DNA of 64,000 nucleotides from a virus. Lineage: Duplodnaviria; Caudoviricetes. The stretch's first letter is position 1. Each line of letters begins with the position of its first letter. Shown in pieces: positions 7,285 to 60,008 of the stretch. The translations under genes were made by a program, and so were the position numbers. The stretch covers positions 1 through 64,000 of the IMG/VR virus record IMGVR_UViG_3300010162_000393; one strand, given 5' to 3'. Below the pieces are notes generated by a model that saw nothing but the letters and a program-made list of their open reading frames with translations, was not told where the DNA came from and did no database searches.

Positions 7285-8338
7285 TTTTTTTGTACGAATA
7301 ATACGTGTGAACAATTTCAATAGAATTACACAACGTGTCTTGGATACTTTCTGGACTAAATACCGTTATTTTTGAAATTTGCATTGGAGTCATTTTCTTA
7401 TTCAAATGGTATCCCAAAAGAATTATTTCTACCTTATTCAGTAGTGTCACATATTTCTTTATGTCGGTTATTTCGCTTATTTTTGATCTTATCCGTAATA
7501 TTTCAAGCGCATTTTTTTGTATTTGTCTAATTCTTTCGGTGGTATATGAATATTTTTCTGCAATATCATCTAATGTATATTGTGAAAAAGAGTTAATACC
7601 ATGTGTTAATTCGATAATTCTCCTTTCAAATGGTAATAATATTGTTATATATTCATTTATCATCGATTTATTATCTTCATCTTCCATTAAAACATTCGCT
7701 CTATTTTCCGTATAAAACAAGTTATTGAAGTCATTTTCTGTTGGGGAAAAGTCTGAATGGTCGTCATAACCACCTATCGGTATATCAATAGAATTAATGG
7801 ATAAATCATACAAATCACTTTTTTCTATTATCTTAATATTGTATTGAGAATCCAATTCTTCCATCATTTCAATATCACTGATTTCTCTACCTTCAACGTT
7901 TCTGAATTTTTCCTTAATTTTATCAACATAAAATGTTGTCTTTTGTAAATTAGTTTTGGTTACTAATTCATTACCCATTAAAAATGCTTTGATTTCTCTT
8001 TGGATATACCATACAGCAAATGTTATGAACTTGTAACCGCTGTTGATATCAAATTTATCAATAGCTATTATTAATCCGATATTTCCCTCGCTGATTAAAT
8101 CAAGCAAATTTGTGTTGTTTGCAAATTTTTTCGCAACAGAAACAACAAATCTCTGATTTGATACTATTATTTTATTCTTAGCACTAAGATCGTTATTCTC
8201 TTTATATGCTTTGAATAACTCAACTTCCTGTTCTCTTGATAAAACTTGTTTACCTCGTATATCATTATAATAAGCGTTTAGTATATGAGAATTTTCGGTG
8301 AAAAAACCGACTTTTTTGGTATTGATTCGTCCTTTCAT
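7277..8338 (-). CDS. Sigma70 (RpoD/SigA-like) RNA polymerase sigma factor, copy 1
   Basis: SNQRFVVSVAKK, DLISEGNIGLIIAIDKFD, YKFITFAVW, region 4 TLDDIA...TTERIRQI, and a C-terminal extension. Confidence 0.92.
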   Translation of the reverse strand: MKGRINTKKVGFFTENSHILNAYYNDIRGKQVLSREQEVELFKAYKENNDLSAKNKIIVSNQRFVVSVAKKFANNTNLLDLISEGNIGLIIAIDKFDINSGYKFITFAVWYIQREIKAFLMGNELVTKTNLQKTTFYVDKIKEKFRNVEGREISDIEMMEELDSQYNIKIIEKSDLYDLSINSIDIPIGGYDDHSDFSPTENDFNNLFYTENRANVLMEDEDNKSMINEYITILLPFERRIIELTHGINSFSQYTLDDIAEKYSYTTERIRQIQKNALEILRIRSKISEITDIKKYVTLLNKVEIILLGYHLNKKMTPMQISKITVFSPESIQDTLCNSIEIVHTYYSYKKNA

Positions 8339-8404
8339 GTTGTTATATTTTTGATTAGGTTTGAAATTTCAAGATAAGAAAAGAGACAATAAAGAAAGTA
8401 AAAA

Positions 8405-43400: not shown

Positions 43401-46400
43401 GGGGCATGGTCAATAGTAGACGGTGATTTACCAATTGGTTTATCGTTGAATGAAGAAACCGGTGTGATTAGTGGAACACCAACCGAAAACGGAGTATTCC
43501 CAATAACTGTAAAATTTGAAAACGATTGCGGTAGTGATGAAACGGAAATATTAATTGTTATTTGTAAAGAGCCGGAAATCACAACTGAAGAAATGACACC
43601 ATCATTAAATAACCCATATTCCCAAAACATAGAATATACCGGTACGGAACCTCATACATGGGCAATAGTAGGCGGTGACTTACCATTGGGATTAGTATTG
43701 AATGAATTTACAGGTGAAATTAGCGGAACGCCATTAGAATTTGGAGATTTTATAATCACTGTTAAAGCAGAAAATGACTGCGGTGAAGATGAAAAAAGTA
43801 TTTTAATATCTGTGTGCGCCGCACCAACTGTTATAACCACCGGTCTTGAATTTGTGGTGGGTCAAGAAGGTTCAGAAGTGTTAGAATCTTTTGGAACACC
43901 AGGAACATGGTCAATAGAAGATGGTGATTTACCAGAGGGGTTGCTATTAGACCCAGATACTGGTGAAATTAGCGGAACACCTACTGATTTAGATGTGTTT
44001 GGTGAAATAAAAATAACAGTTAAGGTTGAAAATGATTGTGGTGATGACGAAAAAGAAATAACCTTATTCATTTGTAGAGAACCTGAAATCACAACAGAAG
44101 ATATGTATGCTTTCGTAGACGAAGAATTTTCAGAATTTATTGTTTATGAAGGTAGTGAACCACATTCGTGGGAAATAGTAGACGGAGATTTGCCTGATGG
44201 TTTAGATTTAGACCCTGAAACAGGTGAAATTAGTGGAACACCAACCGAGTTTGGAGATTTTATATTCACCGTAAAAGTAGAAAATTACTGCGGTGAAGAT
44301 GAAAAAGAAATTCATATGTTCGTATGTGCTCCACCAGAAATTGAAATAGAAGATGACGAATATGATGCCGTAATGGGAGAAGAGTTCTCAATGCAACTAA
44401 CCGCTTACGGAACAGGAGGTGAGTGGTCAATCGAAGATGGTGATTTACCGGAAGGATTGACCTTGAACTCTGAAACAGGTGAAATTAGTGGAACCCCAAC
44501 AGAGTTTGGGGTTTTTACTATCACTTTTAAAATAGAAAATAATTGTGGTGAACAAAATGTTGAAGTCACTATATATGTTTGTGGAGAACCGGAAATTTCA
44601 ACCGGACAATATATCCACCTTGTACAATTAGAAGAATTTGAATTACAATTAGAATTTACTGGTACTCAACCAGGAACATGGTCTGCCGTTAATTTACCAG
44701 ACGGATTAGTATTATCAGAAGATGGTTTATTAAGCGGAATACCAACAGGACATGAAGATGTTACATCACAAATAACTGTTACCAACGACTGCGGTACAGA
44801 CACAAAATCTTTTTTTTTTGATGTAGATGATGTTCATCGACTTATATTTGAAGTAAAAGATATAAGAACTGGTGATCATATACCTGACGCAACTGTTTTA
44901 TGTCCAGGTCTCGATGCGGTAGAAAATGTTGGATCGGGATTTTACATAACAATATTAAATGACGGTACATATACTTGGAGTGTATCAAAAGAGGGGTATT
45001 ACCCAAAGAGTGGAACGGTCATAGTAGAAGGAGATGAAGCGGAAGATATTCACGTATTGGTAGAGCTTCAACCATTAACACATGAAATTAAATTTATCGT
45101 TACAGATGAAGATAGCGGCGACCCGATTATTGGTGCAACCATTGATGTTGTAAATAAAGAAAGTGGTGATACTGTATCTTTAACAGATAACGGTGACGGA
45201 ACATATACTGCATTTATAATCAACGGTGAATATGATTATGATGTGTCAAAAGAAAAATATATCCCAGCAGACGGAGAATTTGAAATCGACCATGATGATG
45301 AAGTGGTTGAAGTACAACTTAAACTTGCTTGCGTAGTTCCAACTATTACAAGTGGAGATAGTATGTATTTCGTAATGGATGAAGAAGGTTTTGAACTCTT
45401 AGAATATACCGGAACAGAAGGAGAGTGGTCAATAGTTGAAGGTGATTTACCTGACGGATTAGATTTAGATCCTGAAACAGGTGAAGTTAGCGGAACGCCA
45501 ACCGAATATGGAAACTTTATATTCACAGCGAAAATAATAAATGAGTGTGGTGAAGATGAAATAGAAATTGATTTATTCGTTTGTGCACCAGAAACAGAAA
45601 TAATAAGCGATGATGAATATGAGATTGTAAGCGGATCGCCTGTTTCGATACAATTAACCACATCGGCAACATTGGGTACGTGGGAAATTGTAGATGGTGG
45701 TTTACCAGCAGGTTTAACGTTAAGTGAAACTGGTTTGATTAGCGGTACAGCAACTGAAATTGGTGAGTTTTGGTTCACAGTAAAAATGGAGGCACCATGT
45801 TGTGAAGACGAAATGGAAATTTATATGTTTGTCTGCGGAACACCAACTATTACAAGTAGTAATAATATGTACTTTGTAATGGGTGAAGAAGACGACTTTC
45901 AATTAACTGCTACCGGATCAGAAGGTCTTTGGTCTATATCAACAGGTTCATTACCATCTGGATTAACATTAGATGCTGGAACTGGTGAGATTAGCGGAAC
46001 ACCTACTGTATATGGTAACTTTACATTCACGGTTAAAATTGTAAATCCTTGTGGTGAAGCAACTCAAAACGTTAATATGAGCATTTGCGGTAAGCCTGAA
46101 ATTACAAGTGCTAATCTTGGATTTGTAATGGATGAAGTTGGAGCGCGACAATTACAATATGACGGTAGTAGACCAGGAACATGGGCAATTGTAGACGGTG
46201 ATTTACCTGCCGGATTAGCATTGAATGCTTCAACAGGTATAATTATTGGTGTACCAACCGAATTTGGGGTATTTGAAGTAACAGTAAAAGTTACCAATGT
46301 TTGTGATGAAGATACAAAAGAAATTATTATAACGGTTTGCGCATCGCCTGAAATTACAAATGAAAATACAATGGAATTCACAATAGGCGAATCAGGTTCT

Positions 46401-49400
46401 GAACAATTAACATCTTCTGGAACAGCGGGAACTTGGTCAATCGAAACAGGTACATTACCTGCCGGATTGACATTAAACGGAACAACCGGTGTAATTAGTG
46501 GAACACCTACCGAATTTGGTGATAGTTTCAAGTTCACGGTGAAAGTTACTAATCCTTGTGGTAGTGATACAATGGAGATTGATATGTTTGTTTGTGGAAA
46601 ACCAGAAGTTACAACTACCGAAATGGAATTTGTAATGGGGGAAGAGAAAACTGAACACTTAACATTCACAGGGACTACACCAGGAACATGGACAATCGAA
46701 GACGGTGATTTACCGGAAGGGTTGGAATTAGATGAAGAAACTGGTGAAATTAGCGGTACACCGACCGAATTTGGCGAATTTTCAATAAGTGTAAAGGTTG
46801 AAAACCATTGCGGTGACGATATAAAAGAAATTGATATAATAGTATGTGGAGAACCGGAAATTACAAGTAGTAATACTATGGAATTTACAATGGGTGAACC
46901 GGGTTCTGAACAATTAACACATACAGGAACAGAAGGTACATGGTCAATTGTTAGCGGAGAAAGCGATGGAAGTTTTGATGACGACTTTGATGATGACTTC
47001 GATATTGGAGAAGAAGCAAGTGAATTACCAGATGGATTATCATTAAATCCGGAAACCGGTGTTATCAGCGGAACCCCAACTGAATTTGGAAACTTTACAA
47101 TTACGGTTAAAGTTGAAAATGATTGCGGTGAAGATGAAATGGAGGTTGAAATAATAATATGTGGTAAACCGGGAATTATAAGTGACGAATTTGACATTGT
47201 AATGGGTGAACCAGAATCTATCTTATTATTACACGAAGGTAGTGCTCCCGGAACTTGGAATATAGAAGATGGTGATCTACCAGATGGTTTAACATTGAAC
47301 GAGGCAACTGGTGAGATTAGCGGAACAGCAAGTGAATTTGGGGTATTTTCATTCACGGTTAAAGTAGTTAATGCTTGTGGTAGTGATACAAAAGAAATAG
47401 AAATAACTGTTTGTGCGGAACCAGAAATTACAAGTGACGATACGACAGATTTTGTAATGGGAAAACCGGGTTCTAAACAATTAACATATTCAGGTACAGA
47501 AGGTATTTGGTCAATATCAAATGGTATATTACCAAATGGGTTGGCGTTGAATACCATAACAGGTTTAATTAGCGGCACACCTACCGAATTTGGTGATTTT
47601 TCAGTTACAGTAAGAATAGTAAATGATTGTAACGAAGATAGTCAAGTAATTAATATGTTTGTTTGTGGAGAACCAGAAATTACAAGCGACGATGAAATGT
47701 TTTTTGTAATGGATGAAGAAGGTTCTAAACAATTAACATATGTTGGTTCACCTGGTGTTTGGTCAATATCAAATGGTGATTTACCAGAAGGTTTAGATCT
47801 AAACGGAGAAACAGGTTTAATTAGCGGAACAGCGACTGAATTTGGTGAATTTATGTTCACTGTAAAAATAACAAACGACTGTGGGGAAGACGAAATGGAG
47901 ATCGAACTATTCGTTTGTGCAACAGATTCTGAAATAACAAGTGATAATGAGTATGAAATTGAAACCGGAAAAACTGTTTCAATACAATTAACTGCTTCTA
48001 AAACATTAGGTGAGTGGGTAATCGTAGATGGTGGATTACCTATTGGGCTGACATTAAATAAAGAAACCGGTTTGATTAGCGGAACAGCAACAGAATTTGG
48101 TGATTTCAAATTCACTGTAAAAATGGAAACAATTTGCGGTGAAGATGAAATGGAAATTGATATATTTGTTTGCGGTGCACCCGTTATTACAAGTGGTAAT
48201 AGTATGAGTTTCGTAATTGATGAACCCGGTTCTGAAACATTAACATACACAGGAACAGAAGGTACATGGTCAATATCAGTTGGTTCATTACCAAACGGTT
48301 TATCACTAAACACTACAACCGGAGTTGTTAGTGGAACGCCCACTGTATACGGTAACTTTATGTTTACGGTAAAAATAACAAATCCTTGTGGTGAGGCATC
48401 TAGAAATATTAATATGTTCATTTGCGGAACACCTGAAATAACAAGTGGTGATAACATGTTTTTCGTAATGGGCGAGTCCAGTTCAGAAACATTAACATTT
48501 GACGGTAGTAGACCTGGAACATGGGCAATAGAAGAAGGGATATTACCAGGTGGTTTATTGTTAAACGGAACAACTGGTGTGATTACTGGAACTCCGACAG
48601 AGTATGGAGATTATGTTTTCACGGTGAAAATTACAAACCCTTGTGGTTGGGCAACAAAACAAATTAATATGTTGGTGTGCACCGAACCAGAAATAACAAC
48701 AAGTATTAATGAATATGATGGTGTAAAAGGTAATCCTATTTCAATAGAATTAGAATCAATCGGAACAGACGGTGTTTGGTCAGTATCAGCGGGTAAATTA
48801 CCTACAGGATTATTGTTAGATGATGAAACCGGAATAATTAGCGGAACACCAACAGAATTTGGTGACTTCACATTTACAGTAAAAATTACTAACCCTTGTG
48901 GAGTAGATACATTAGAGATAGAATTATTTATTTGTGGTCCAGCGGAAATTATAACAGGTCAGTATTTCCATTTTATACAAGAAGAAGAGGTTGAAGAAAC
49001 ATTAGAGTTTGAAGGAACTCATCCCGGTGTTTGGACAGCAGAAGATTTACCAGAAGGATTAGTGTTGTCAGAAGAAGGTAAATTAAGTGGCTCCCCAACA
49101 GAATTTGGTGAATTTAGAACACAAATAACTGTTAACAATGATTGTGGTGGAGATACAAAAGAATTTTTATTTGAAATAGATGATATTCATCGAATTATAT
49201 TTGAAGTAAAAGATATAAGGACTGGTGATCATATACCTGATGCAACTGTTGTTTGCCCTGATTTAGAAATAGAAAACGTTGGTTATGGTTTTTATGTGAC
49301 AAAATTGGTTGACGGAACGTATGATTGGACAGTTTCAAAAGAAGGTTATTATACTGAAACAGGTACGGTTATTGTAGAAGGAGATGAAGCAGAAGATATT

Positions 49401-51827
49401 CATGTATTAGTCTTACTCCAACCTTTGACACACGAAATTAAATTCATAGTAACAGATGAAGACAGTGGTGAACCGATTATTGGCGCAACCATTGATGTTG
49501 TAAATTCAATAAGTGAACAAGTTGTGTCTTTAACTGATAACGGCGATGGAACATACACGGCGTTTATAGTAAATGGAGATTATGATTATGATGTTTCAAA
49601 AGAAAAATATATACCAAAAGATGGTAGATTCAACATTAATCGTGATGATAAAGTAATTGAAGTACAACTTAAACTTGCATGTGAAATACCTGTTATTACA
49701 AGTAGTAATGAGATATTTTCCCTAATAGGTGAAGAAATTTTCTTACAATTGGAACAAGATGGTACACCGGGTGTATGGACATTGGTTGAGGTAACAGGTT
49801 ATGGTGGTGATTTTAATAACGATTTTAGTAACGATTTCAGTATCGGTAAAAACACTGGTAAATTACCTATTGGGGTAACATTTGATTCTGAAAACGCTAT
49901 TATTGGCGGTATACCAAATGAGTTTGGTATCTTTACCGTTACTGTAAAGTTGGAAAACGACTGTGGTGAAGATGAAATGGAAATTGAAATCTTTGTCTGT
50001 GCTGAATCCGAGATAACAAGTACTAATGAAATTATTAACGAAGAAGAGACTCTTCATACAGTAACACTTCTTACAACTATAGAGCGACGCACAAGTCAAA
50101 TTTTCAACGGAAAGTTGTATATGCCACAAGAACAAGGTACCACCCTTGAAATTTTTGATTTGATAACTGAATCTAGTCGCACGGTAACACTTACAAATAT
50201 GGGGCGATACACAAGTCAAATTTTCAACGGAAAGTTGTATATGCCACGAGCACATCAGTTTCCTACCGGTATCGGCACCCTTGAAATTTTTGATTTGGTA
50301 ACTGAAGTTAATCGCACGGTAACGCTTCCTACAAATAATATGATGCGATACACAAGTCATATTTTCAATGGAAAGTTATATATGCCACAAAGTTGGGGTA
50401 CAACCCTTGAGATTTTTGATTTGATAGAAGAAACTACTCGGACGATAACACTTCCTACAAGTATGGAACGATACACAAGTCAAATTTTCAACGGAAAGTT
50501 ATATATGCCACAAAGTTTGGGTACAACCCTTGAGATCTTTGATTTGGTGACAGAAACTACTCGGACGGTAGCACTTCCTACAAATATGTGGCGAAACACA
50601 AGTCAAATTTTCAATGGAAAGTTATATATGCCACAAAATAACGGTACCACCCTTGAGATTTTTGATTTAACGACAGAAACCACACGCACGGTAACACTCC
50701 CTATAGAAGTGTCTCAGGCAAGTCAAATTTACAATGGAAAGTTATGTATGCCACGTTCTGGTGGTGGAACCACCCTTGTGATTTTTGATTTGATAGAAGA
50801 AACCACTAACATGGTAACACTTTCAACTACAAATACGTTCCTATTAACAAGTCAAATTTACAATGGAAAGTTATATATGCCACAAACCAATGGTACCACC
50901 CTTGTGATTTTTACCACCACAATTATAAAATCAAGTTTATTTGAAATAGAAACAAATAAATATGTTTCAATACAATTAACCGCTTCTGCAACTCCTGGAA
51001 CATGGGTAATTACAGAAGGTGTATTACCACTTGGTTTAGTGTTAAATAATAAAACTGGGTTGATAAGTGGTATTGCAACCGAATTTGGAGAGTTTACATT
51101 TACGGTTGAATTGGAAACACCTTGTAGTATTGATACAACGGAAATTAACATGTTTGTTTGCGGCGCACCTGTTATTACAAGCGGTAATAGTATGTATTTC
51201 GTAATGGGAGAAGGTGACTATAGTGAACAATTAGAATATGTTGGCACAGAAGGTGAATGGTCGGTTTCAACAGGAACATTACCTAGTGGTTTATATTTAA
51301 ATCCAATAACCGGTGTTGTAGATGGTACCCCGAATGTATATGGTAACTTTACTTTCACAATTAAAATTGAAAACCCTTGTGGAGAAGCAACTAAAAACAT
51401 TAGTATGTTCATTTGCGGAAAACCAACCGTTATAACTAATCAGTTAAATTTTGTTAGAGGTGAATTTGGTTCAGAAGAATTAATATTTGCTGGTAGTAGA
51501 CCTGGATATTGGTCAATATTTGGTGGTAGTTTTGACGATGAGGATTTTGATGAATCCTTTGAGACAGAAGACGCTGAATTACCATATGGTTTATCATTAG
51601 ATCCAAATACCGGTATTATTAGCGGAACACCGATTGAAATAGGAAACTATGCAATTCTTGTTAAAGTTGTTAATCCTTGTGGTGAAGCAACAAAAGAAAT
51701 TAATATATTAATATGCGATGAATTTGATATAACAAATGATAATCAATATGATATTATAAAAGGTGATCCTATTTTAATACAATTAACAACTACTTTTGGT
51801 AAAAAAGATGAACCAATAGCACATTAA
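34437..51827 (+). CDS. Giant (5796 aa) putative-Ig (He_PIG-like) repeat protein with carboxypeptidase-regulatory-like domains and an inserted beta-propeller; probable virion fibre
   Basis: Roughly 60 units of about 81 aa, consensus C-x-x-P-x-I...W-S-I-x-x-G-x-LP-x-GL-x-L...G-x-ISGTPT...F-x-V-x-V-x-NxCG. Also I-x-DA-x-V...NG-x-Y...V-x-KEGY domains. No signal peptide seen. Confidence 0.9.
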   Translation: MASKFSVNRHATQKYSVYSRVVNDISPVVVASTAKSPNDIIFTITFYVTDFNDKKIPDASVSIVSHDFKIINHFDGSYKVIDVPNGKYEYVVEKTGFVAVEGVVTVSGSDLEVHVKLCEVPSKIVNGNLNFVMNEEMYQKFGYVGSTPGTWSVVKGELPNGITFDHDGILSGTPRAFGKFEVTVMVENSCGSVTKDLLIQVCAVPEITTVDFVLPHKQTVSEQLSFYGSEPATWSVEDGLLPKGLLLNGQTGVISGTTKDYGDFDVTFKVANACGEDVKELKITICAKPKITSNDDTKFTMGEEGSVQLTSYGNPGVWTLYSGNLPNGLTLSEDGILSGTPTTFGKFDFTVKVENACGEDRQFMKVWICGKPEVVSGDMSFVMGQPVSHQLQFSGSRPGTWSIVEGVLPKGLTLNAETGVISGTPKEFGESSFTVMVVNPCGEATKVVNASLCAKPTIMSCCSGCDTNFVKGQEASMQYEASGSAGTWSVLGGILPTGLTLDPNTGIISGTPTVGGYYEFTLKFTNPCGEVEKCMSLFVCAEPSIKGSGEISFAMGQPGSHELHFEGSRPGIWSVSEGVLPAGVSLNAELGVISGTPTEFGDFDFTLKVTNHCGESTKEMNISICGQPQITSAGNINILTGESVNIQLESNGTPGVWSAEYGLPEGLSLSADGLISGEPTESGNFNVLITLTNDCGEASRNFNIFVCAEPEILTGDFDVLQNTPMSKQLQFAGSRPGTWSIEEGSLPWELKMDSKGVVSGTPKKVGSFSVLLKVKNYCGEVTKPIVVTSKKTYKATFIVKMEDGTMVPDASVVVGGFIVTNNNNGTYESYLTDGAHGFTVTKEGYEVEEGVVEIDGEDVVVTIILCVFPEILNGDMSFVMGVAKVVQLESTGSAGEWSIQGDLPEGLTFNATTGVISGTPEEFGEFEITLIMTNPCGSVSKDIEIVICGAPEITSSDEIEFVKGEKSSYELEFFGTDPATWEVSEGSLPAGLTLDAATGEIKGTPTVFGDFVFTVKVTNECGFDEQEISMFICAEPEVTSSGTLSFVMTEEHSEQLTSSGTPGVWSIVTGNLPDGLSLNVATGVISGTATEFGDFTVVVRVVNECGEATKETVISVCGLPVVTSGDMEFVMNEPVSHQLTAEGTEGTWRLLSGKLPLGLTLDSETGIISGTPTEFGDFSIVLRFTNVCGVARKILNIFVCAKPQITSANNINFALSDEASFQLEYTGTPGTWSVVDGDLPEGVTLKPTTGVISGTPVEAGNYYVTLKIENACGDATKSVNIFVCAEPVIIVSNIEFLQNVYVSKQLDFTGSRPGKWEVVSGSFPAGITLATNGVVSGIPTEMGNFEVVVKVKNPCGEDTKEISLFSCAKPVIINDNNIAFVKGEESAVQIEAIGTEGTWSIVSGALPNGLSLDPSGEISGTPTEGGTFKVTVQLENPCGVTTKMMVINVCAKPIIVSGDLDFVQNTPVSHQLRFIGSRPGKWSISAGNLPAGLSLDPNTGIISGSTHEFGEYNLTISVENECGVANKDIIMSTCSKPGIVSGDMNFVINEEGSSLLENSGTAGTWSIISGSLPNGLELDEITGEISGTPTVSGIYTFTVKVVNSCGEATKVVNLYVCAKPVISTGDLSFVMGEAVSQKLQYTGTRPGEWSIEGELPNGLTFNAETETISGIPSEFGEFEVILIVKNPCGEASKTIEIVICAKPVITSDHADFVMGEESSVELEGNGTEGVWTVDSGVLPEGLSLSSDGILSGTPAVSGNHSFTVKFKNACGESIKTILIYICAKPTIVSGDLNIVMGTPMSQQLIFSGTRPGTWSIESGNLPTGITLSEDGVLSGTTTEFGDFDVVIRVENPCGIALKPITIDTCAKPTITNNSDLTFVMNEYSSDELTASGTAGVWSVIGGSVLPDGLELDEETGIISGTPTVSGTFNIVVKIENHCGEDIRSIAIQICAKPTITSGELDFEVGVHGSETLTFTGSRPGTWSIVEGALPAGLTLNGATGVISGTPTEFGEFFVEVKVENHCGEETKEIEIFVCSKPAVTSGSNMNFVMGEAGSAQLTSSGTEGEWEIFAGELPAGLELDEETGLIYGNPTVFGNFAFTVMVVNPCGSATQEINMFICGKPAVISGDMEFVMGEESEEQLMFSGSRPGTWSVVEGDLPEGLTLDAETGVISGTPTEFGDIVFTVKVENPCGEATKEITAVVCGKPVVTSGTNMTFVMNEHSSEQLTSSGTEGIWSIDDGELPMGLILDPETGVISGTPLVFGNFVFTVKVENPCGEATEEINMFICGKPAVLNSTHPNFVMGEENELQLLFSGSRPGTWSIEEGELPEGVTLDPETGIISGIPTEFGDFEFTVKVENPCGEATKDFEMFVCAKPEIISPDKYDSVFDEEILFQLENTGTEGIWEITEGELPLGLELDEEGLIVGTPRVFGHFKFKVMVVNPCGEDEMEIDMFICKLPEIVSEEFDFVLGEESSEELTFIGSRPGSWSVVEGDLPAGLVLDSVEGTISGTATEKGDFNITLKVINPCGEDTKEIKIFVCEEPEVTSGGYFEFVMGNEVELQLEHTGTDGEWSLVEGDYLPEGLELNSETGLISGIATEFGNFYFTVKLTNYCGEAYKVIQIFMCGLPEILTESMGFVMGEEDDHQIVATGSMPGTWSIIEGVLPNSFVLNTSTGIISGTLTEHGEFPITVKLVNSCGETTKEIIITVCQTPTITSENDLEFVMGERVTFQLTNDGTAGEWEIIDGELPEGLRLNPLTGVISGRAREFGNFTFTVKIDNHCGSDTQVIEMFMCGLPVILHGNMNFQINEPGSDTFIGDGTPGTWSIVGGGLLPTGLTLNPTTGEVSGTPTVAGHFELVVKLENDCGSIMRDVVIFVCAPPEIIGEIDDFYVMGSEISQEFQFSGSRPGEWSVVGGDLPEGVTFDPETGILSGIPTEHGEFIFTVKVENPCGEATKEINIFICLEPEIITGGLEFDFNEYGEFELEVIGSEGAWSIVDGDLPIGLSLNEETGVISGTPTENGVFPITVKFENDCGSDETEILIVICKEPEITTEEMTPSLNNPYSQNIEYTGTEPHTWAIVGGDLPLGLVLNEFTGEISGTPLEFGDFIITVKAENDCGEDEKSILISVCAAPTVITTGLEFVVGQEGSEVLESFGTPGTWSIEDGDLPEGLLLDPDTGEISGTPTDLDVFGEIKITVKVENDCGDDEKEITLFICREPEITTEDMYAFVDEEFSEFIVYEGSEPHSWEIVDGDLPDGLDLDPETGEISGTPTEFGDFIFTVKVENYCGEDEKEIHMFVCAPPEIEIEDDEYDAVMGEEFSMQLTAYGTGGEWSIEDGDLPEGLTLNSETGEISGTPTEFGVFTITFKIENNCGEQNVEVTIYVCGEPEISTGQYIHLVQLEEFELQLEFTGTQPGTWSAVNLPDGLVLSEDGLLSGIPTGHEDVTSQITVTNDCGTDTKSFFFDVDDVHRLIFEVKDIRTGDHIPDATVLCPGLDAVENVGSGFYITILNDGTYTWSVSKEGYYPKSGTVIVEGDEAEDIHVLVELQPLTHEIKFIVTDEDSGDPIIGATIDVVNKESGDTVSLTDNGDGTYTAFIINGEYDYDVSKEKYIPADGEFEIDHDDEVVEVQLKLACVVPTITSGDSMYFVMDEEGFELLEYTGTEGEWSIVEGDLPDGLDLDPETGEVSGTPTEYGNFIFTAKIINECGEDEIEIDLFVCAPETEIISDDEYEIVSGSPVSIQLTTSATLGTWEIVDGGLPAGLTLSETGLISGTATEIGEFWFTVKMEAPCCEDEMEIYMFVCGTPTITSSNNMYFVMGEEDDFQLTATGSEGLWSISTGSLPSGLTLDAGTGEISGTPTVYGNFTFTVKIVNPCGEATQNVNMSICGKPEITSANLGFVMDEVGARQLQYDGSRPGTWAIVDGDLPAGLALNASTGIIIGVPTEFGVFEVTVKVTNVCDEDTKEIIITVCASPEITNENTMEFTIGESGSEQLTSSGTAGTWSIETGTLPAGLTLNGTTGVISGTPTEFGDSFKFTVKVTNPCGSDTMEIDMFVCGKPEVTTTEMEFVMGEEKTEHLTFTGTTPGTWTIEDGDLPEGLELDEETGEISGTPTEFGEFSISVKVENHCGDDIKEIDIIVCGEPEITSSNTMEFTMGEPGSEQLTHTGTEGTWSIVSGESDGSFDDDFDDDFDIGEEASELPDGLSLNPETGVISGTPTEFGNFTITVKVENDCGEDEMEVEIIICGKPGIISDEFDIVMGEPESILLLHEGSAPGTWNIEDGDLPDGLTLNEATGEISGTASEFGVFSFTVKVVNACGSDTKEIEITVCAEPEITSDDTTDFVMGKPGSKQLTYSGTEGIWSISNGILPNGLALNTITGLISGTPTEFGDFSVTVRIVNDCNEDSQVINMFVCGEPEITSDDEMFFVMDEEGSKQLTYVGSPGVWSISNGDLPEGLDLNGETGLISGTATEFGEFMFTVKITNDCGEDEMEIELFVCATDSEITSDNEYEIETGKTVSIQLTASKTLGEWVIVDGGLPIGLTLNKETGLISGTATEFGDFKFTVKMETICGEDEMEIDIFVCGAPVITSGNSMSFVIDEPGSETLTYTGTEGTWSISVGSLPNGLSLNTTTGVVSGTPTVYGNFMFTVKITNPCGEASRNINMFICGTPEITSGDNMFFVMGESSSETLTFDGSRPGTWAIEEGILPGGLLLNGTTGVITGTPTEYGDYVFTVKITNPCGWATKQINMLVCTEPEITTSINEYDGVKGNPISIELESIGTDGVWSVSAGKLPTGLLLDDETGIISGTPTEFGDFTFTVKITNPCGVDTLEIELFICGPAEIITGQYFHFIQEEEVEETLEFEGTHPGVWTAEDLPEGLVLSEEGKLSGSPTEFGEFRTQITVNNDCGGDTKEFLFEIDDIHRIIFEVKDIRTGDHIPDATVVCPDLEIENVGYGFYVTKLVDGTYDWTVSKEGYYTETGTVIVEGDEAEDIHVLVLLQPLTHEIKFIVTDEDSGEPIIGATIDVVNSISEQVVSLTDNGDGTYTAFIVNGDYDYDVSKEKYIPKDGRFNINRDDKVIEVQLKLACEIPVITSSNEIFSLIGEEIFLQLEQDGTPGVWTLVEVTGYGGDFNNDFSNDFSIGKNTGKLPIGVTFDSENAIIGGIPNEFGIFTVTVKLENDCGEDEMEIEIFVCAESEITSTNEIINEEETLHTVTLLTTIERRTSQIFNGKLYMPQEQGTTLEIFDLITESSRTVTLTNMGRYTSQIFNGKLYMPRAHQFPTGIGTLEIFDLVTEVNRTVTLPTNNMMRYTSHIFNGKLYMPQSWGTTLEIFDLIEETTRTITLPTSMERYTSQIFNGKLYMPQSLGTTLEIFDLVTETTRTVALPTNMWRNTSQIFNGKLYMPQNNGTTLEIFDLTTETTRTVTLPIEVSQASQIYNGKLCMPRSGGGTTLVIFDLIEETTNMVTLSTTNTFLLTSQIYNGKLYMPQTNGTTLVIFTTTIIKSSLFEIETNKYVSIQLTASATPGTWVITEGVLPLGLVLNNKTGLISGIATEFGEFTFTVELETPCSIDTTEINMFVCGAPVITSGNSMYFVMGEGDYSEQLEYVGTEGEWSVSTGTLPSGLYLNPITGVVDGTPNVYGNFTFTIKIENPCGEATKNISMFICGKPTVITNQLNFVRGEFGSEELIFAGSRPGYWSIFGGSFDDEDFDESFETEDAELPYGLSLDPNTGIISGTPIEIGNYAILVKVVNPCGEATKEINILICDEFDITNDNQYDIIKGDPILIQLTTTFGKKDEPIAH
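50050..50920 (+). repeat. Seven repeats of about 39 aa (about 117 bp), a predicted 7-bladed beta-propeller
   Basis: Unit TSQIFNGKLYMPQxxGTTLEIFDLxxETTRTVTLP repeated seven times, highly similar at the DNA level. Confidence 0.85.
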
Positions 51828-51830
51828 TAT

Positions 51831-51838
51831 CTATTTAT
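51831..51838 (+). promoter_or_regulatory. CTATTTAT motif in the 47-nt gap that splits an Ig domain
   Basis: Starts 4 nt after the giant gene's stop and precedes the ATG at 51875. Confidence 0.55.
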
Positions 51839-51874
51839 GAATAAAAGAAAAATAATATTTAAATATAAAAAATT

Positions 51875-54664
51875 ATGGATTCAAAATTAATAAACGAATG
51901 GACAATTATATACGGTAGATTACCAAATGGTTTGTTGTTGGATAAGGAAACCGGTGAAATAAGCGGTATCCCAACCGAAACAGGTAACTTCACATTTACT
52001 GTAAAGGTTGTAAATCTTTGTGGAGAAGAAACAATGGAGATAGAATTGTTTGTTTGCGCAATGCCTGAAATTACGACCGCACCATATTTTCATTTTATAC
52101 AATTAGAAGAAATTGAAGAAAAAATATTAGAGTTTGAAGGAACTCAACCAGGAGTATGGTCTGCTGTTAATTTGCCAGACGGGTTAATATTATCGGAAGA
52201 CGGAAAACTAACAGGAACACCAACCGGATATGGTGAAATAAAATCAGAAATAACTGTTACCAATGCCTGTGGAGCAGATACTGTAGAATTTCTTTTTGAT
52301 TTAGATGATGTTCATCAAATTATATTTGAAGTAAAAGATAAACGAACCGGTGAACATATACCTGACGCAACAGTTATTTGCCCTGATTTGGAAATAGAAA
52401 ATCATGATAATGGTTTTTATACAACAATACTGAATGACGGGGAGCATCCTTGGCATGTTTCAAAAGAAGGGTATTTTCCAGAAGAAGGGACCGTTGTAGT
52501 AGAAGGAGATGAGGGGGAAGATATTTATGTGTTGGTGGAACTTCAACCAACAACATATGAATTAAAGTTTATTGTTACATATGAAGATACAGGAAATCCG
52601 GTAACAGATGCTACTATTGGGGTTATAAATTCTGAAACTGAACAAATTATTTCTTTAACAAATAAAGGTGGTGGTGTGTACTCTACATTTGTTGAAAATG
52701 GTAAATATGATTGGGGCGTTTCAAAAGAAAGTTATATTCCAGTAGATGGTGACGTTACTATTAATTATGCGGACGAGGTAATTGAGGTTGCGCTTATCCA
52801 AACTACAAAAGAATTAATATTTAAGGTAATAAATAATGGTGGTAGTTTTAGTGAACTACATTTTGATAATTCTTTTGATGTTGGCGGAAGGTTAATTAAT
52901 GATGCGACGGTTGTTTCTGGTAATTCACTGATTGATTTAGATATAACAAACAACAATGACGGTACTTATAAAACAGAAGTGTTTTCTGGTACATATAACT
53001 ATGCAATATCAAAAGAGGGATTCATAACCGAAAAAGGTAGTGTAGTGGTGCAAAGTGAAAATGTTGAAGTTTCTGTCCCACTTTCTGAAATAGTTGGTAT
53101 TATAACAGTAAATGCGACTGTTGCCCTGAGTAATGCTACTTGTAGTGCAACAATATCAGCATCTCCTGTATTATCTGGTTATACATATGATTGGTCTTTA
53201 TGGAATATGGATACAGAAACTTTAATTTCACAATCTCTTAATCAAACAGGTACTACATGGAATATGGGAGCAATGAGTAGTGGAAATCAAAATGTACCTC
53301 TTGAAGTACGCTGTACTGTAAAAGAACCTGTTTCGTCCGGCACCGCTTCGTTTGTTTGTACCCCACTTCCTTTGTGGAGAGTAACACAATTAAACCCTAC
53401 TTTGACGGTAAATAGAGCAAATATAATAACAGGTGAAACATTTATTGCCACATGTACAAACACCGTCGGAATGTCGCCGTTTGAATATGTATTTGAGGTG
53501 ATTAACCGCAGTAACGGTGAAGTAATACACGGTCCAATAAATCAAGATGTGTTAAATATATTTGAATATACACCAGCGACATTAGGAAATTATGGTGTTC
53601 GTTGTAGAGTGAATGTAAAAAATATACCTGTTGAATTTTATGATCAAACAGATGGGTTAGCAACAAGACTCGCTACCGTTAGTGGTCAAACTGATAACAT
53701 TGCTAGGGTTGATGTATACGATCCTATTGTTGCGACAATATCAACACCAAAATTAGGTCTGATGGAAGATGAACCGTTTGTTGTAACATGTACTTGGTCT
53801 GGTGGTTTAAGTCCATTTAGTTTTATTTGGAGTATGTGGCGAAAAGATGGTAGTACTTATACACAAATTGGAGCAAATACCACTACTACATCTTTTCAAT
53901 ATGGTAATGGTACATCAGCTTTATTTCCTACTCAATTTGCAACGCTCTTTACAAGTGGTGAAGCGAGTGGAATTAAAGAGGTTGAATTTAGATGTAGAGT
54001 AGAGAGTACTTCAACTTTATTTAACCCTCGTTTATCATGTGATGTGGTTCCAATTGTTGTTCAAATAGAACGACCACCATTTCAGTTTGTTTCAATAACA
54101 TTGGAAGGTACTGAACCTGGAGATGGTGACGATGGGAAAAGTCCTAGTCATTTTTTTGGAACAACCATAAAGGCAACTATTAATTTTACTGGTGGTACAC
54201 TACCAATAACACGTTACCAAAGAAGATTATCAACCCTTACAAATACAAATGGAAATTTAATTGCACTTGGTGATATTACACCGCTATCACCAACATTTGA
54301 GTTTATATGGCCGGTGTCAAACGGATCAACAAGTGGTAATGTTGATCATGTTACCTTGTATTGTACAGTAAGAGATAATAAGAATAGAGAAATAAATGGT
54401 AGTATAATAATATATAATTATATGTTTGGTAAACTATCTGGTATTATCACTTACAATCAGAAAAAACCAACAGGTGATGAAACGCTACCATACGTTATAA
54501 CACCATATGGTGGTGTTGGAACAGTTTATTATAGTTGGAAAATATACGATAATGAAACCAATGAATTAGTTGCAACGATTCCATCAATTGGTACCCAAAC
54601 CGGTACAACTATTAATTATGCAATTCCCTCAAGTCTTGCTCATTATGATGCTTTGATAAAATAA
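51875..54664 (+). CDS. Ig-repeat fibre continuation protein (929 aa)
   Basis: Begins with the second half of an Ig repeat. Then carboxypeptidase-regulatory-like domains and PKD/Ig-like units (GG-x-x-P...Y-x-W...V-R-C-x-V). Confidence 0.88.
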   Translation: MDSKLINEWTIIYGRLPNGLLLDKETGEISGIPTETGNFTFTVKVVNLCGEETMEIELFVCAMPEITTAPYFHFIQLEEIEEKILEFEGTQPGVWSAVNLPDGLILSEDGKLTGTPTGYGEIKSEITVTNACGADTVEFLFDLDDVHQIIFEVKDKRTGEHIPDATVICPDLEIENHDNGFYTTILNDGEHPWHVSKEGYFPEEGTVVVEGDEGEDIYVLVELQPTTYELKFIVTYEDTGNPVTDATIGVINSETEQIISLTNKGGGVYSTFVENGKYDWGVSKESYIPVDGDVTINYADEVIEVALIQTTKELIFKVINNGGSFSELHFDNSFDVGGRLINDATVVSGNSLIDLDITNNNDGTYKTEVFSGTYNYAISKEGFITEKGSVVVQSENVEVSVPLSEIVGIITVNATVALSNATCSATISASPVLSGYTYDWSLWNMDTETLISQSLNQTGTTWNMGAMSSGNQNVPLEVRCTVKEPVSSGTASFVCTPLPLWRVTQLNPTLTVNRANIITGETFIATCTNTVGMSPFEYVFEVINRSNGEVIHGPINQDVLNIFEYTPATLGNYGVRCRVNVKNIPVEFYDQTDGLATRLATVSGQTDNIARVDVYDPIVATISTPKLGLMEDEPFVVTCTWSGGLSPFSFIWSMWRKDGSTYTQIGANTTTTSFQYGNGTSALFPTQFATLFTSGEASGIKEVEFRCRVESTSTLFNPRLSCDVVPIVVQIERPPFQFVSITLEGTEPGDGDDGKSPSHFFGTTIKATINFTGGTLPITRYQRRLSTLTNTNGNLIALGDITPLSPTFEFIWPVSNGSTSGNVDHVTLYCTVRDNKNREINGSIIIYNYMFGKLSGIITYNQKKPTGDETLPYVITPYGGVGTVYYSWKIYDNETNELVATIPSIGTQTGTTINYAIPSSLAHYDALIK

Positions 54665-54695
54665 TATAAAAATAATATAAAAAAATAATAATAAA

Positions 54696-57600
54696 ATGGC
54701 ACATTATCCATACAATGATTTACGTTTAGAATGTACAATAACCAATAGCGGAAATTCAAATGAATTTGTTGCAAAAGAGTGGGTTACACCAGCCGTACCG
54801 GTTGCAGCATGGGAGGGGACAAAAGAACCTATGTTAACTGGTTTAGCATTTCCCAAACCAACAAATTTGAGATATGCTAATATAACCAACCATGTCTATT
54901 CGCCAACAAGAAATACCGCATATTATTATAATAACCAAGTTATTCAATATTCAAGTGTATTAAGTCCAATTCGGTTAGTATATATATTGAAAATTACCGA
55001 TTTTATTATGACAAGTTGTACGGTTGGGTGTTTGCACCCAGACGGGGTAATATTTTTATGTAATAATAACACTAGTTCTTCAAGAGCAATATTAGTAAAG
55101 GAAATAAGTGAAGAACCATTTGCTGATTATGAAACAATACATAATTATCCGGGTGCTTTACCGGATACTAATGGTAATAGGAGACTTCATTTTGTTCATT
55201 ATTATGATAATAAATTCTATGCGCAAAATGGTGTAGTATATGATATGAATTATAACGAAATTGCTACCCATTTAGTTGATAACACAGCAAAAGTAGCACC
55301 CGTTAATCCAAAACTTCAACCAAATAGATGGTGGATTGGTACAGCTACTGCAAATGGTGGAACAAAATCGTGTTATATTTCAAATAATGATAGTGCGAAT
55401 AGTTATACAAATTCTTTATCTGTTTCCCATTTTTATCGTGATGTTGAAATTAATTCAACAACAACTGATCCAGCATCAATATCGTTTAATTGGAAAGGTG
55501 TTGGTGATACGACTTGGGGTTATTTACAGTTTCGTGTTATAGAAACTAGTGAAACGCCGGTACCAGGTACACTACCTTCAGGATCCTCTCTTGTTGGTAA
55601 TTTATTTAATAGTTCAGTGTGGATAAATAGAGTTGTTACTCTAGGTGAAATGTCTGGTGTAAAACGTATTGTGTTTACATGGCGTAATACCGCAAATACT
55701 ACTTACCAACCACCTGCTGCCGTAGATAACATTATTATTAAGACGAATGTTGGTCCAGATATTATTGAGGATTTTGAGAGCGGTGATGGTACAACACTTG
55801 ATAATTGGGTGTTTCCGGATCCTCTAGTTATATTACCACCAAATATATCATATTACGGTTTTAATACAGAAAGAGATATATTATATGGTTATAATGCTAA
55901 TCTATTGAATACAAATAATGGGGATGGAAAATTTCTTTGTAATATTCGTATTAATAATACCGGAAATTTAATTCTAGCTGTTTATGATGTTGTAAGTAAT
56001 AATGTTAAAGTGTTAAATAGCATAGTAACAAATAATATATCATATTTTGGTTATTATTTTGCGAATAATTGTGTTGTTGTATTAATGCATGATATTTTGG
56101 ACTCCCAAACACCAAGAATGGCAAAGGTTAAAATATATGATTTAATTTCCGATAATATAACGGAATTAGATATTAAACGATCAACCACTTTCACAACTTT
56201 TTATGTTAGACCAACATTTGATAAAAGATATGTAAACATTGCAACAAATCTTACTGTTGCTACTACACCACGCATATATGAAACATATTTTACATTTGTT
56301 GATACTATTGATAAGCGAATAATAACCAGAAACGGATCATATTCTTATAATAATAATTCTGGTAGTAACGATACTGCTCTTTCTTTTCATATGACTTATG
56401 CGTATGCTTTTATTGAATATGAAGGTGAATTTGTTGGTATCCATACAAAATTGAGTGATGGTAATGCGCTACATTCATTATGTGATGTTCCGGTAGTTCT
56501 TGGTGATAGAATATATTCATACGGACATACTTCAGCAAACCATCCTGTTTATTTTGTGGATAAAACGAATCAATTAACATTATTATCAACAAATGATAAT
56601 ACATATCAAGAACTTAATCCAACAACCACACCTGTATGGTTTTTACCTACTTCTAATCTTGTTTATTTACAATATAATAATAATATATATAAAATAGGTA
56701 TTTCTAATTTTTATGTTGGAACTAATAATTATAGCGTTTCGTTGGTTGTTTCGGTTTATGATGTTGCTTCTTATTCATGGAGTGTTGTTAATAAATTGAA
56801 TTTATCTAGTGGTAATAATAATAGTGATTTTAGAATTATTCGCGCATGTTTTGATGAAGATTATGTGTATTTATTAGTAAACTATGCAAATAGTACCGCA
56901 TTAAGAATAATTATATTTAATAAAATAACATACGAGTTAATATCAAATACTGATGCTCAACGTAATCAACCATTTTATATTAGTTTTAATAATACTCAAA
57001 CTGCTCTTTGGAATTTTAGTAGTAGATATGGAAATGGTAGTAGTAATTTGCGACCAACAATATCAACATCTAATATGTTTTATAACAATTTTTATCTTTT
57101 CTTTGACATTAGTTATACACCAGTCCCATTTATGATATATGATATGAAAACACGTATAATTCATCAAATGATGTGGGATGGTTGTAATAGTACAACCTCT
57201 GGACTATCTATACCAAGTAATACGGCTAGTAATTATACAATTACATTCGTTGAGTTGGATAATAATAAAATATTAGCTTCAGCGTTTTTTAATAATAATT
57301 TTAGTTTAATATTAGAACATGATTTATCTACAAGATCAACTATTTTGTTAAACCATTCAAACTGGAATGATAGTACTATGGGGCGTGAAAGAAAACTTGT
57401 ACTTGGTAATATTTATAGGGTTGCTGATCGTATATATATTAATACCACAGCAACCACAGGTGGTGTGGCATTTGATCTTGATTATAACCCTGTTTCTTTT
57501 AGTGGTATTACACCAACTCAAGATTATTCAGATTATTATCGTCTTAATTATAATAACATTACACCTCATTATTTTGTAAATTCAGATAACACAATAATAA

Positions 57601-60008
57601 AAGATAATGATGTTATAACTGTAACAAATATTGATTCCGGATATGTTTTAAGAACACATCTTTATGTGGATGGTATGTCATGTGTGTTATGTGGAAGAAC
57701 TAACGATAAACCAAGATTATATCTTTTAAATGAAGATTTTTCAGTTACATTTTTACGTGAATATAATGAAAGTAGTATTTCTCATACCAGTAATAATAAT
57801 ATTATTAATAGAAATGTTTGGAATATTGGAAAAAATGTTTTATATTCCGGTAGGATACCGAATACATTGCCTTTGAAAAGGATACCTTCAAACGTTTCCT
57901 CAATGAGTTATATCAACCCAATGAGAAATCATGATTCATTTTATCTTGTTTCATTCGCTAATGGTGGTATTATGAAACAAACTGGTCCAACAACATTTAC
58001 ATTAACTACTGCGCCTGTTGAATATACATATAGCGCATTTGGTATAAGCACAAATACAATACTTTTACGTGGAAGATATGCTGGTACTAGTAACGATTTG
58101 TGGTATAAATGGGATGAATTTAACACTCCTGCATGGGTTCAATGTGGTGGTACTAATCCATCTTCTCCAACACTTGTTACACAAAATACTTGTACTGATA
58201 GGATTTATATTATGAATAGTAGTCAAATATTTAAATATGATCGTAATACAAATACTATTAATTTATTTCAAACTTTGGGTGGTTTTATTGCTACTGATTT
58301 GTATATACAACATAAAGATCACAAAGAAGGTAGAATGTATTTTGTTAGAAATAATATACTATATAGAGAATCAGATGATTTATTATCAATAGTAGAAGTG
58401 TTAAGAAGCGAAACTAATATTGTTAATGTTATTATTTGTCCCGGAGATTTGTTGTATTATGCTAATACAAGGGATGTGTTTTCATTTAATGGAGTAACAC
58501 AAAATAGAATTGGTACAACAGGGTCAACGACTAATATTGTTGATATAGCAATTGATGGTGATGGAGTGATTTGGGGTATAACAGGTAGCACAACATTTAA
58601 TATTAAAAATGGTGTTATAAGTGAAAGTATTACAATGTGTAGATATATAACTGTATCAAGTCAAACTAATCAAAGAGAATTATCAGCGACTTATGGTGCA
58701 CTAACAAGACTTATAATTGAACCAGAACATAATAGAAGGTTTATGTTTAATACTAATTATCAATTTTATTGGTCTGATTTATACAATATTAATATAACAC
58801 GTACTCAACGAACTATTGATACCGGAAGGATAAGATTATTTTTATATAATAATTATATATTTAGTATTAGTGATACTGAAGTAGTGGTTTGGTTCGTAGA
58901 TGTCTACGGGAATCTCGTGTCTTCAGAATTTGATTGGCAAATGGGTAACGATAAAAGACATCTCGTTTGTTATAAACCGTTTGCGGTTGGTGCTGATACA
59001 CATATATGGGATAACCCTAACCCAAGTGGTGTAATTGAAAATATGCACACCAGTGATATAACTGATGTGATAACCGACCAGTATTCTGGTTGGATGCAAA
59101 TAGCTGGTAATTGGGAATCTTTTAATGCAATTGTACCTAGAAAGTCTAATGAATATTCATATAATAGTAGACCAAGATTTTGGGATCAAAATATTAAAAT
59201 TAATAATATGGAAGTTGCTAGCAGAGTTTCGATATGGACAGGAACTGAAAGTATATATTTACCACTTAATATTATTGCTGTAACAAATAAACTTGTTGGT
59301 TCAGGAAATGATTTAAGGATTTCATTGACTGTAAAGGGAAGTGGGTATATGTACCTTAGTTGGGGTGTAGATTCACCAATACAAGTAGAATTGACCGGTT
59401 CTGAACAAACATTCGATTATCAATACACAGCAAAAAATTTTCATACAATAACTATCTATGCAAATGATGTTACATACTTTAAATGTACTAAAGCTAAATT
59501 AATGCAGGTGGATATATCGAAAAATAAAACATTAACACGTATAGATGTTCAGGATAATTTATTATGGGAATATGAATTAAATCATATTATTGAACATCTA
59601 CCACCAGTAACAGGAGGAACAATTAAAATTTGTGATAATCCTGCTTCAGATACTTGTGATAGATTTAGTGTTATTGAAAAAGGATGGGATTTTGATGCAT
59701 ATCAGGATAATATTGATATCACAGAAGTCAATAATTCTATTGTAAATATTTATGATACACATGGTGATATAGATGATAATGAAAATAATGTTAAAACCAT
59801 TGAACAAGCAAGAGCAAGTGTTATGCGCATTCTTGCAACCACATATCCTGTGGATTTTAATGATGTGAAACCAACGTTAGAAGACATTGCGTTTGTTCCT
59901 GCCGGAGGTGGTGTAAACGGTTATTATGATTTTTATATGAAACTCAATAAGTGTGAGGGAGCAGAACAGATCGTAGGACCATTAAGATTAGATATTTGGG
60001 CAGTTTAA
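54696..60008 (+). CDS. Large N/T/Y-rich beta-structure protein (1770 aa), probable distal receptor-binding component
   Basis: Contains a WWIGTA...PPAAVDNI beta-sandwich, propeller-like strands and a short C-terminal LRR-like segment (VDISKNKTLTRIDVQDNLL). Confidence 0.8.
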   Translation: MAHYPYNDLRLECTITNSGNSNEFVAKEWVTPAVPVAAWEGTKEPMLTGLAFPKPTNLRYANITNHVYSPTRNTAYYYNNQVIQYSSVLSPIRLVYILKITDFIMTSCTVGCLHPDGVIFLCNNNTSSSRAILVKEISEEPFADYETIHNYPGALPDTNGNRRLHFVHYYDNKFYAQNGVVYDMNYNEIATHLVDNTAKVAPVNPKLQPNRWWIGTATANGGTKSCYISNNDSANSYTNSLSVSHFYRDVEINSTTTDPASISFNWKGVGDTTWGYLQFRVIETSETPVPGTLPSGSSLVGNLFNSSVWINRVVTLGEMSGVKRIVFTWRNTANTTYQPPAAVDNIIIKTNVGPDIIEDFESGDGTTLDNWVFPDPLVILPPNISYYGFNTERDILYGYNANLLNTNNGDGKFLCNIRINNTGNLILAVYDVVSNNVKVLNSIVTNNISYFGYYFANNCVVVLMHDILDSQTPRMAKVKIYDLISDNITELDIKRSTTFTTFYVRPTFDKRYVNIATNLTVATTPRIYETYFTFVDTIDKRIITRNGSYSYNNNSGSNDTALSFHMTYAYAFIEYEGEFVGIHTKLSDGNALHSLCDVPVVLGDRIYSYGHTSANHPVYFVDKTNQLTLLSTNDNTYQELNPTTTPVWFLPTSNLVYLQYNNNIYKIGISNFYVGTNNYSVSLVVSVYDVASYSWSVVNKLNLSSGNNNSDFRIIRACFDEDYVYLLVNYANSTALRIIIFNKITYELISNTDAQRNQPFYISFNNTQTALWNFSSRYGNGSSNLRPTISTSNMFYNNFYLFFDISYTPVPFMIYDMKTRIIHQMMWDGCNSTTSGLSIPSNTASNYTITFVELDNNKILASAFFNNNFSLILEHDLSTRSTILLNHSNWNDSTMGRERKLVLGNIYRVADRIYINTTATTGGVAFDLDYNPVSFSGITPTQDYSDYYRLNYNNITPHYFVNSDNTIIKDNDVITVTNIDSGYVLRTHLYVDGMSCVLCGRTNDKPRLYLLNEDFSVTFLREYNESSISHTSNNNIINRNVWNIGKNVLYSGRIPNTLPLKRIPSNVSSMSYINPMRNHDSFYLVSFANGGIMKQTGPTTFTLTTAPVEYTYSAFGISTNTILLRGRYAGTSNDLWYKWDEFNTPAWVQCGGTNPSSPTLVTQNTCTDRIYIMNSSQIFKYDRNTNTINLFQTLGGFIATDLYIQHKDHKEGRMYFVRNNILYRESDDLLSIVEVLRSETNIVNVIICPGDLLYYANTRDVFSFNGVTQNRIGTTGSTTNIVDIAIDGDGVIWGITGSTTFNIKNGVISESITMCRYITVSSQTNQRELSATYGALTRLIIEPEHNRRFMFNTNYQFYWSDLYNINITRTQRTIDTGRIRLFLYNNYIFSISDTEVVVWFVDVYGNLVSSEFDWQMGNDKRHLVCYKPFAVGADTHIWDNPNPSGVIENMHTSDITDVITDQYSGWMQIAGNWESFNAIVPRKSNEYSYNSRPRFWDQNIKINNMEVASRVSIWTGTESIYLPLNIIAVTNKLVGSGNDLRISLTVKGSGYMYLSWGVDSPIQVELTGSEQTFDYQYTAKNFHTITIYANDVTYFKCTKAKLMQVDISKNKTLTRIDVQDNLLWEYELNHIIEHLPPVTGGTIKICDNPASDTCDRFSVIEKGWDFDAYQDNIDITEVNNSIVNIYDTHGDIDDNENNVKTIEQARASVMRILATTYPVDFNDVKPTLEDIAFVPAGGGVNGYYDFYMKLNKCEGAEQIVGPLRLDIWAV

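Follow-up and report, generated by a model that had tools for sequence, protein, structure and literature searches.

The fibre gene cluster and its phenylalanine-rich loops

The window, that is, the whole stretch of 64,000 nucleotides that was analyzed, represents the first 64 kb of one viral record of 136,864 bp with a G+C content of about 30–37% and a CheckV completeness of about 38%. The record encodes a T4-type large terminase, a DNA polymerase, a DnaB-like helicase, an RNA ligase, and an SbcC-like protein, which identifies its source as an uncultured large tailed phage. The large terminase is about 25% identical to terminases of Flavobacterium, cyanobacterial, and enterobacterial myophages. 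Four very long genes are located on the + strand, the first of them starting at position 34437; "tag" and "module" denote the two sequence elements described below.

p1, 34437-51827, + strand: giant fibre of 5796 aa with loops 1 to 3 in its distal third
p2, 51875-54664, + strand: 929 aa with CarboxypepD_reg-like and PKD-like domains, bears loop 4
p3, 54696-60008, + strand: 1770 aa, carries neither tag nor module
p4, 60042-66728 of the record (past the window end at 64000), + strand: 2228 aa, BspA-type LRR_5 adhesin-like

Protein p1 is composed of about 55 He_PIG Ig-like repeats, pairs of CarboxypepD_reg-like β-sandwiches, and one β-propeller insert. He_PIG (PF05345) was matched with 43.4 bits by p2 and with 30.4 bits by a p1 segment at a gathering cut-off of 24, and the 54 repeats that were aligned share invariant G, W, P, G, and C residues. 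The match of p4 to LRR_5 had an E-value of 2.6e-168; for p3, no Pfam family was matched.

Further features of this gene region were noted. The β-propeller-like insert comprises about eight repeats of approximately 42 residues each (..YTSQIFNGKLYMPQ..TTLEIFDL..; window 50004-51236, p1 residues ~5190-5600) and sits between loops 2 and 3; its best Pfam match was Beta-prop_AT5G49610-like (E 2.3e-11). A domain spanning about 170 aa (..KWWIGT..NGGTKSCYISN.. to ..AAVDNIIIKTNVGPDI.EDFE.G.G..LD.W) occurs once in p3 (~55330-55800, + strand) and at least twice in p4 between LRR blocks (~61450-61970 and ~62750-63280, + strand); it had no Pfam match. Outside the fibre genes, a 412-aa ORF on the - strand (14002-15240) matched the transposase family phrog_506 with E 2.6e-61, and a second ORF at 90210-91403 of the record, beyond the window, has a similar TnpB/IS605-OrfB-like N-terminus.

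The borders of the fibre genes fall inside domains. Protein p1 breaks off two strands into a He_PIG repeat, and the start of p2, which lies in another frame 47 nt past p1, supplies the remaining back half of this unfinished repeat (window 51720-51960). Likewise, p2 ends within a PKD-like repeat and p3 begins with the missing last strands, MAHYPYNDLRLECTITN (window 54580-54790). The three AT-rich spacers between the fibre genes are alike; the borders therefore seem to be real gene borders, and fibre proteins cut in this way may be joined head-to-tail by strand complementation.

The original prediction had placed four acidic, phenylalanine-rich peptides in p1 and p2, and all four were confirmed by translation. 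They are located as follows:

loop 1, 46968-47009, + strand: G-SFDD-DFDD-DF-D-I-G, W-to-LP loop of a p1 He_PIG repeat, Phe spacing 4/4
loop 2, 49803-49847, + strand: G-G-DFNN-DFSN-DF-S-I-G, W-to-LP loop of a p1 He_PIG repeat, Phe spacing 4/4
loop 3, 51522-51563, + strand: G-G-SFDDE-DFDE-SF-E, W-to-LP loop of a p1 He_PIG repeat, Phe spacing 5/4
loop 4, 52838-52879, + strand: G-G-SFSELH-FDNS-F-D, A-B loop of a p2 CarboxypepD_reg-like domain, Phe spacing 5/4

The translations read Gly (46968-46970) followed by SFDDDFDDDFD (46971-47003) for loop 1, GGDFNNDFSNDFS (49803-49841) for loop 2, GGSFDDEDFDESFE (51522-51563) for loop 3, and GGSFSELHFDNSFD (52838-52879) for loop 4. All four loops carry a Gly ahead of the first unit and I, V, or T two residues past the third Phe.

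The 55 He_PIG repeats were located by anchors and the spacer between G-x-W and L-P-x-G was measured. It comprises 4–7 residues in 52 of the 55 repeats and 22, 27, and 28 residues in exactly the three repeats that bear the motif. Hence, the assumption that the first three loops occupy one and the same position of the Ig repeat, at which the other repeats have no insert, holds. The A-B loop harboring loop 4 is about 20 residues long as compared to about 6 residues in seven sister CarboxypepD_reg-like domains.

A strict pattern, [DS]F-x3-4-F-x2-[DS]F[DSE], was found four times in p1 and p2, as compared to 0.0065 times on average and once at most when the residues were shuffled 2000 times, and it was absent from every other real ORF of the whole record. 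An AlphaFold2 model of the loop-2 repeat, calculated with the 54-repeat alignment, reached a pLDDT of 88.9 overall and of 95–98 in the blocks flanking the insert; the insert itself was modeled as coil with a pLDDT of 50–69, which points to an exposed flexible peptide.

The tag and its partner module in other phages

IMG/VR was scanned for DNA encoding DFxNDFxNDF, and at least 119 loci were obtained. In about 100 of them, G-DFNN-DFNN-DF lies at the very C-terminus of the encoded protein, and in many Bacteroidota phages this canonical tag forms the last 13–16 residues of the tail-tip or baseplate protein. Among 122 distinct C-terminal tags, Gly was present at position -1 in 113, the chain ended 2–3 residues past the third aromatic residue in 94, and D, F/Y, and N were near-invariant with a period of 4. 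The tag is encoded by 97 distinct DNA spellings in which synonymous codons are used freely, indicating selection on the peptide and not on the DNA. Internal tags were found in a few of the other loci, namely L019, L032, and L053; all four tags of p1 and p2 are internal, in β-sandwich loops, and not C-terminal.

The tagged proteins belong to about ten unrelated families among the matches listed. One is a 291-aa protein (phrog_35885) matching the 265 N-terminal residues of a tail-fibre family of 2038 aa. The others include a P2 gpI-like baseplate protein (Tail_P2_I), a baseplate wedge (phrog_180), a major-tail-like protein (phrog_1407), a LysM/hub-like protein of about 95 aa, a gpJ-like tail protein of 727 aa (phrog_469), and several further families. 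Chain S of PDB entry 9wwc, a 288-aa 'distal tail protein', falls into the 291-aa family (E 2.8e-96) and ends with GKGDYNSDFNNDFNNQ; a publication for this entry was not found in the literature searched. The published work on tentaclin is unrelated.

Loop 2 is nearest to the canonical sequence G-DFNN-DFNN-DF-x-I and agrees with it at nearly every position. When the tag is described as Gly followed by three [DS]-[FY] units with a period of 4, loops 1 and 2 agree with it throughout. Loops 3 and 4 depart from it only in their first spacing of 5, and with this off-consensus spacing they may be weak or inactive. A scan with the all-acidic sequence FDDDFDDDF returned generic acidic tails only, with no module nearby; the spelling of loop 1 is thus not diagnostic by itself.

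Within about 20 nt 3' of the tagged gene lies a gene whose product opens with M..Y..LK.AI..VIK.NGN.EITG..LQN.L..I. This module comprises about 40 residues with a helix-loop-helix pattern and the consensus ..L...I...I..NGNxEITGxxLQxxL..I. Searched for with a regular expression, it stood at the start of the following gene in 77 of the 91 loci selected by the tag, among the matches listed, as compared to 36 of 1558 other ORFs (2.3%; Fisher p 5e-89). These statistics are inflated by related loci, with 65 of 106 tagged proteins among the matches listed belonging to one family; nevertheless, the pairing recurs in about ten tagged families.

Selection in the reverse direction, in which loci were chosen only by DNA encoding NGNxEITG, yielded 69 new loci, and in 55 of them a D-[FY]-N-x tag terminates the ORF upstream. 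The 59 distinct upstream ends comprised 47 with three units and 12 with none; ends with two or four units did not occur. The association of GDFNxDFxxDF-type peptides with module genes in Bacteroidota phages, on which the original prediction had drawn, is therefore real and strong, and the co-occurrence of motif and module across phage genomes is clear from either side. Cultured phages with the pair are Parabacteroides phage PDS1 (gp59/gp60), Elizabethkingia phage TCUEAP2, and Croceibacter phage P2559S; the tag of the latter starts with G-S-F, as do loops of the window.

In metagenomic protein space, a profile of the module matched 7313 of 1.84 billion cluster representatives at E ≤ 0.001. The module is carried by tail proteins of both siphoviruses and myoviruses. 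In the best 150 of these 7313 representatives, it was almost always located within residues 1–50. Nine module proteins were scanned against Pfam and showed varied C-terminal domains, for example a GDSL esterase, a metallophosphatase, and a CBM. The module itself is covered by no Pfam family and present in no PDB chain.

Bacteroides phage B124-14 produces a tail fibre of 2006 aa, ORF020, the N-terminal domain of which is a homologue of the 291-aa tagged protein. The two PDS1 proteins gp59, which carries the tag, and gp60, which carries the module, correspond to this single ORF020, and ORF020 contains neither element. In the form divided between two genes, the tag thus occupies one of the cut ends and the module the other. 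This suggests that the pair replaces a covalent link, with tag and module binding each other; the fused fibre is the best available argument for such binding. No protein in the fetched loci combined the module with the canonical tag.

Two variants of this arrangement were observed. In two IMG/VR loci (L020, positions 3269-8368, and L150), two consecutive module-first fibre genes follow one tagged gene, so that alternative fibres may compete for one kind of docking site. In three others (L060, L067, and L101), tagged wedge proteins of phrog_180 are followed by genes starting with MTLAEIT..I..NID.TGRRLTTG..MREVLNGIV, which looks like a divergent module missed by the HMM at E 1e-3.

A triple module in p4 and predicted docking to the giant fibre

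An HMM built from the IMG/VR modules was used to search the 137-kb record. The only match was the N-terminus of p4 (E 2.9e-12), to residues 1–120 of which the original prediction had proposed to dock the loops. It is present in three copies:

module copy 1, 60048-60155, + strand: p4 residues 3-38, HMM match
module copy 2, 60183-60281, + strand: p4 residues 48-80, HMM match, best fit to the canonical module
module copy 3, 60318-60395, + strand: p4 residues 93-118, HMM match

The copies are divergent, with E-values of 0.057, 3e-5, and 0.0016, respectively, and the invariant N, I, and L residues are kept in all three. None of the 152 other module-bearing ORFs in the fetched loci had tandem modules; the arrangement thus has no precedent there. 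Relatives of p2 or of the triple module were found neither in GenBank phages nor in IMG/VR nor, at 725–2309 aa, in a set of 5.8 billion proteins. The p4 gene belongs to the same operon as the loops and is not adjacent to them, since it starts 7–13 kb downstream with p3 in between. With about 38% of the genome represented in the record, other module partners may exist.

Structure prediction was also applied. A single-sequence AlphaFold2 model of p4 residues 1–135 showed a helix-loop-helix pattern at a pLDDT of 50.8, a value at which only the secondary structure is usable. Prediction of a complex of p4(1–135) with the loop-2 He_PIG domain, run without controls, gave ipSAE values of 0.03 and 0.00 and a mark of 0.32, a result that favors neither binding nor its absence.

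We propose, with a probability of roughly 0.6, that the four loops are internalized copies of the tag, that tag and module act as plug and socket, and that p1 and p2 form a scaffold from which p4 branches off sideways. In many Bacteroidota phages, a Gly followed by three Asp/Ser-Phe/Tyr units with a period of 4 ends the virion-proximal tail-tip or baseplate protein, and the partner module opens the fibre gene directly downstream; most likely, the pair constitutes a non-covalent plug and socket by which exchangeable fibres are hung on the tail. In the phage described here, the tags would be presented on flexible β-sandwich loops in the distal third of the giant Ig-repeat fibre made up of p1 and p2, and the socket would be the N-terminus of the LRR adhesin p4 with its three modules in tandem. 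As the module occurs in no protein of the record other than p4, the loops are probably plug-in sites for this adhesin, and the giant fibre would offer up to four side-branch sites for it.

The original idea that the loops anchor accessory fibres is thus supported by the co-occurrence data, with reservations that concern the off-consensus spacing of loops 3 and 4 and the non-diagnostic spelling of loop 1. These reservations also feed another explanation, by which the loops merely look like tags and are acidic-aromatic surface loops that bind Ca2+, a polysaccharide of the host, or some other ligand, or that make the fibre stiffer. Loops 1, 3, and 4 exceed the canonical tag in acidity, two loops have a different spacing, and FDDDFDDDF occurs in generic acidic tails. 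However, four independent insertions into two types of domains share the Gly prefix, three aromatic units, and the I/V/T suffix; loop 2 is near-canonical; and the cognate module occurs three times in this operon but at no other place in the record. We consider look-alikes unlikely.

Tag and module could also be coupled without touching each other, if both are read by a third factor, for instance a chaperone of fibre assembly, a modifying enzyme, or a further protein of the baseplate, or if the junction serves mainly for recombination of fibre cassettes. The evidence for the pair is indeed co-occurrence, and fibres with the same module bear many different distal parts, as would fit cassette exchange. 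However, synonymous codons vary freely, so that the conservation does not concern DNA identity, the fused form in B124-14 points to a direct link, and at first sight no additional conserved gene is conspicuous next to the pairs; coupling without contact appears quite improbable to us.

A further explanation is that the inserts lack a function and arose by 12-nt slippage during replication of a repetitive gene, in line with the fact that every insert is a threefold tandem of a 4-codon unit. Slippage is very hard to reconcile with the observed excess of the motif over the shuffled sequences (4 versus 0.0065) and with inserts that are confined to surface loops of two fold types and differ in their codons. 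Finally, although the aromatic-x-Asn/Asp pattern resembles three-residue cyclophane motifs, modification of Phe-x-x-Asp/Asn units by a triceptide-type radical-SAM cross-linking enzyme is already disfavored and barely credible, given that the ~38%-complete record gave no Radical_SAM (PF04055) match in a search that matched 14 of 14 control genomes, and that the fibre gene follows directly after the tagged gene in the tag loci and leaves no room for an enzyme gene.

Within the plug-and-socket reading, the numbers of units and modules suggest that one tag engages three modules. Tail fibres are usually homotrimeric, and p4 with its LRR architecture is presumably a monomer. We infer that a tag with three Asp-Phe units would contact three modules. 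In ordinary phages, each chain of a trimeric fibre would provide one of them; in a monomeric p4, all three would come from the single-chain triple module. A more detailed version, which we regard as tentative and rather doubtful, is that a single peptide of 12 residues and three Asp-Phe units serves as a plug with three-fold symmetry, each Phe inserting into one of three helical-hairpin modules, by which a monomeric baseplate protein could hold a trimeric fibre despite the 1:3 mismatch. In the present phage, this device might have been rebuilt as a cellulosome-like display, in which four plugs on an Ig-repeat scaffold receive a monomeric LRR adhesin with three tandem modules that mimic the socket of the trimer.

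Non-covalent attachment of exchangeable fibres lets phages change their host range. In the searchable literature, no description of an attachment rule was found for Bacteroidota phages, among them those of gut Bacteroides and Parabacteroides. If the proposed pairing is true, annotation would gain from it: a protein ending in the tag could be read as a fibre-bearing tail part, and a protein starting with the module as a fibre. A tag of 12 residues and a module of 40 residues would also be small enough to serve as a portable plug for the engineering of Bacteroidota phages. Furthermore, the window would represent the first case in which the tag provides internal branch points on a scaffold fibre.

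Comparison with known systems

Anchor-branch systems of receptor-binding proteins are found in Klebsiella and E. coli phages and comprise the K1-5/SP6 adaptor, G7C gp66-gp63.1, the KP32-type dual depolymerases, and CBA120 TSP1-4. For phage RaK2, a multi-branched adsorption complex is reported (PMC10253068). In function, these systems are nearest to the arrangement predicted here, and two likenesses emerge: host-binding proteins that can be exchanged are attached non-covalently to a virion-proximal protein by a short conserved N-terminal element, and several adhesins can branch from one fibre. The differences concern sequence and polarity. The window shares no sequence relation with the anchor-branch systems or with RaK2. 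Anchor-branch systems employ T4 gp10-like or XD branching domains together with a conserved N-terminal peptide on the incoming protein; such branching domains had no Pfam match in p2–p4 or in the p1 segments scanned. In our proposal, the polarity is reversed, as the peptide would be located on the scaffold, as C-terminal tail or loop, and the folded element on the incoming fibre.

With the cohesin-dockerin scaffoldins of cellulosomes, only the logic is shared, namely an extended scaffold of repeats to which modular subunits can dock at several sites. There is no homology, and neither cohesin nor dockerin was matched by Pfam in p2, p3, p4, or the p1 segments scanned; the putative docking site is a peptide of about 12 residues and not a folded domain.

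A further comparison is with the canonical pair itself, as present in PDS1, TCUEAP2, and P2559S; neither the motif nor the tag-module pair was found described in the searchable literature. The window has the same tag consensus and the same module. The canonical arrangement consists of one C-terminal tag and one module per chain (residues 1–50) encoded by adjacent genes, whereas the window combines four internal loop tags on an Ig-repeat scaffold with three modules per chain, encoded by genes 7–13 kb apart. As judged from these sequences, the window would thus add to the canonical pair tags embedded in loops and a candidate triple socket on a single chain.
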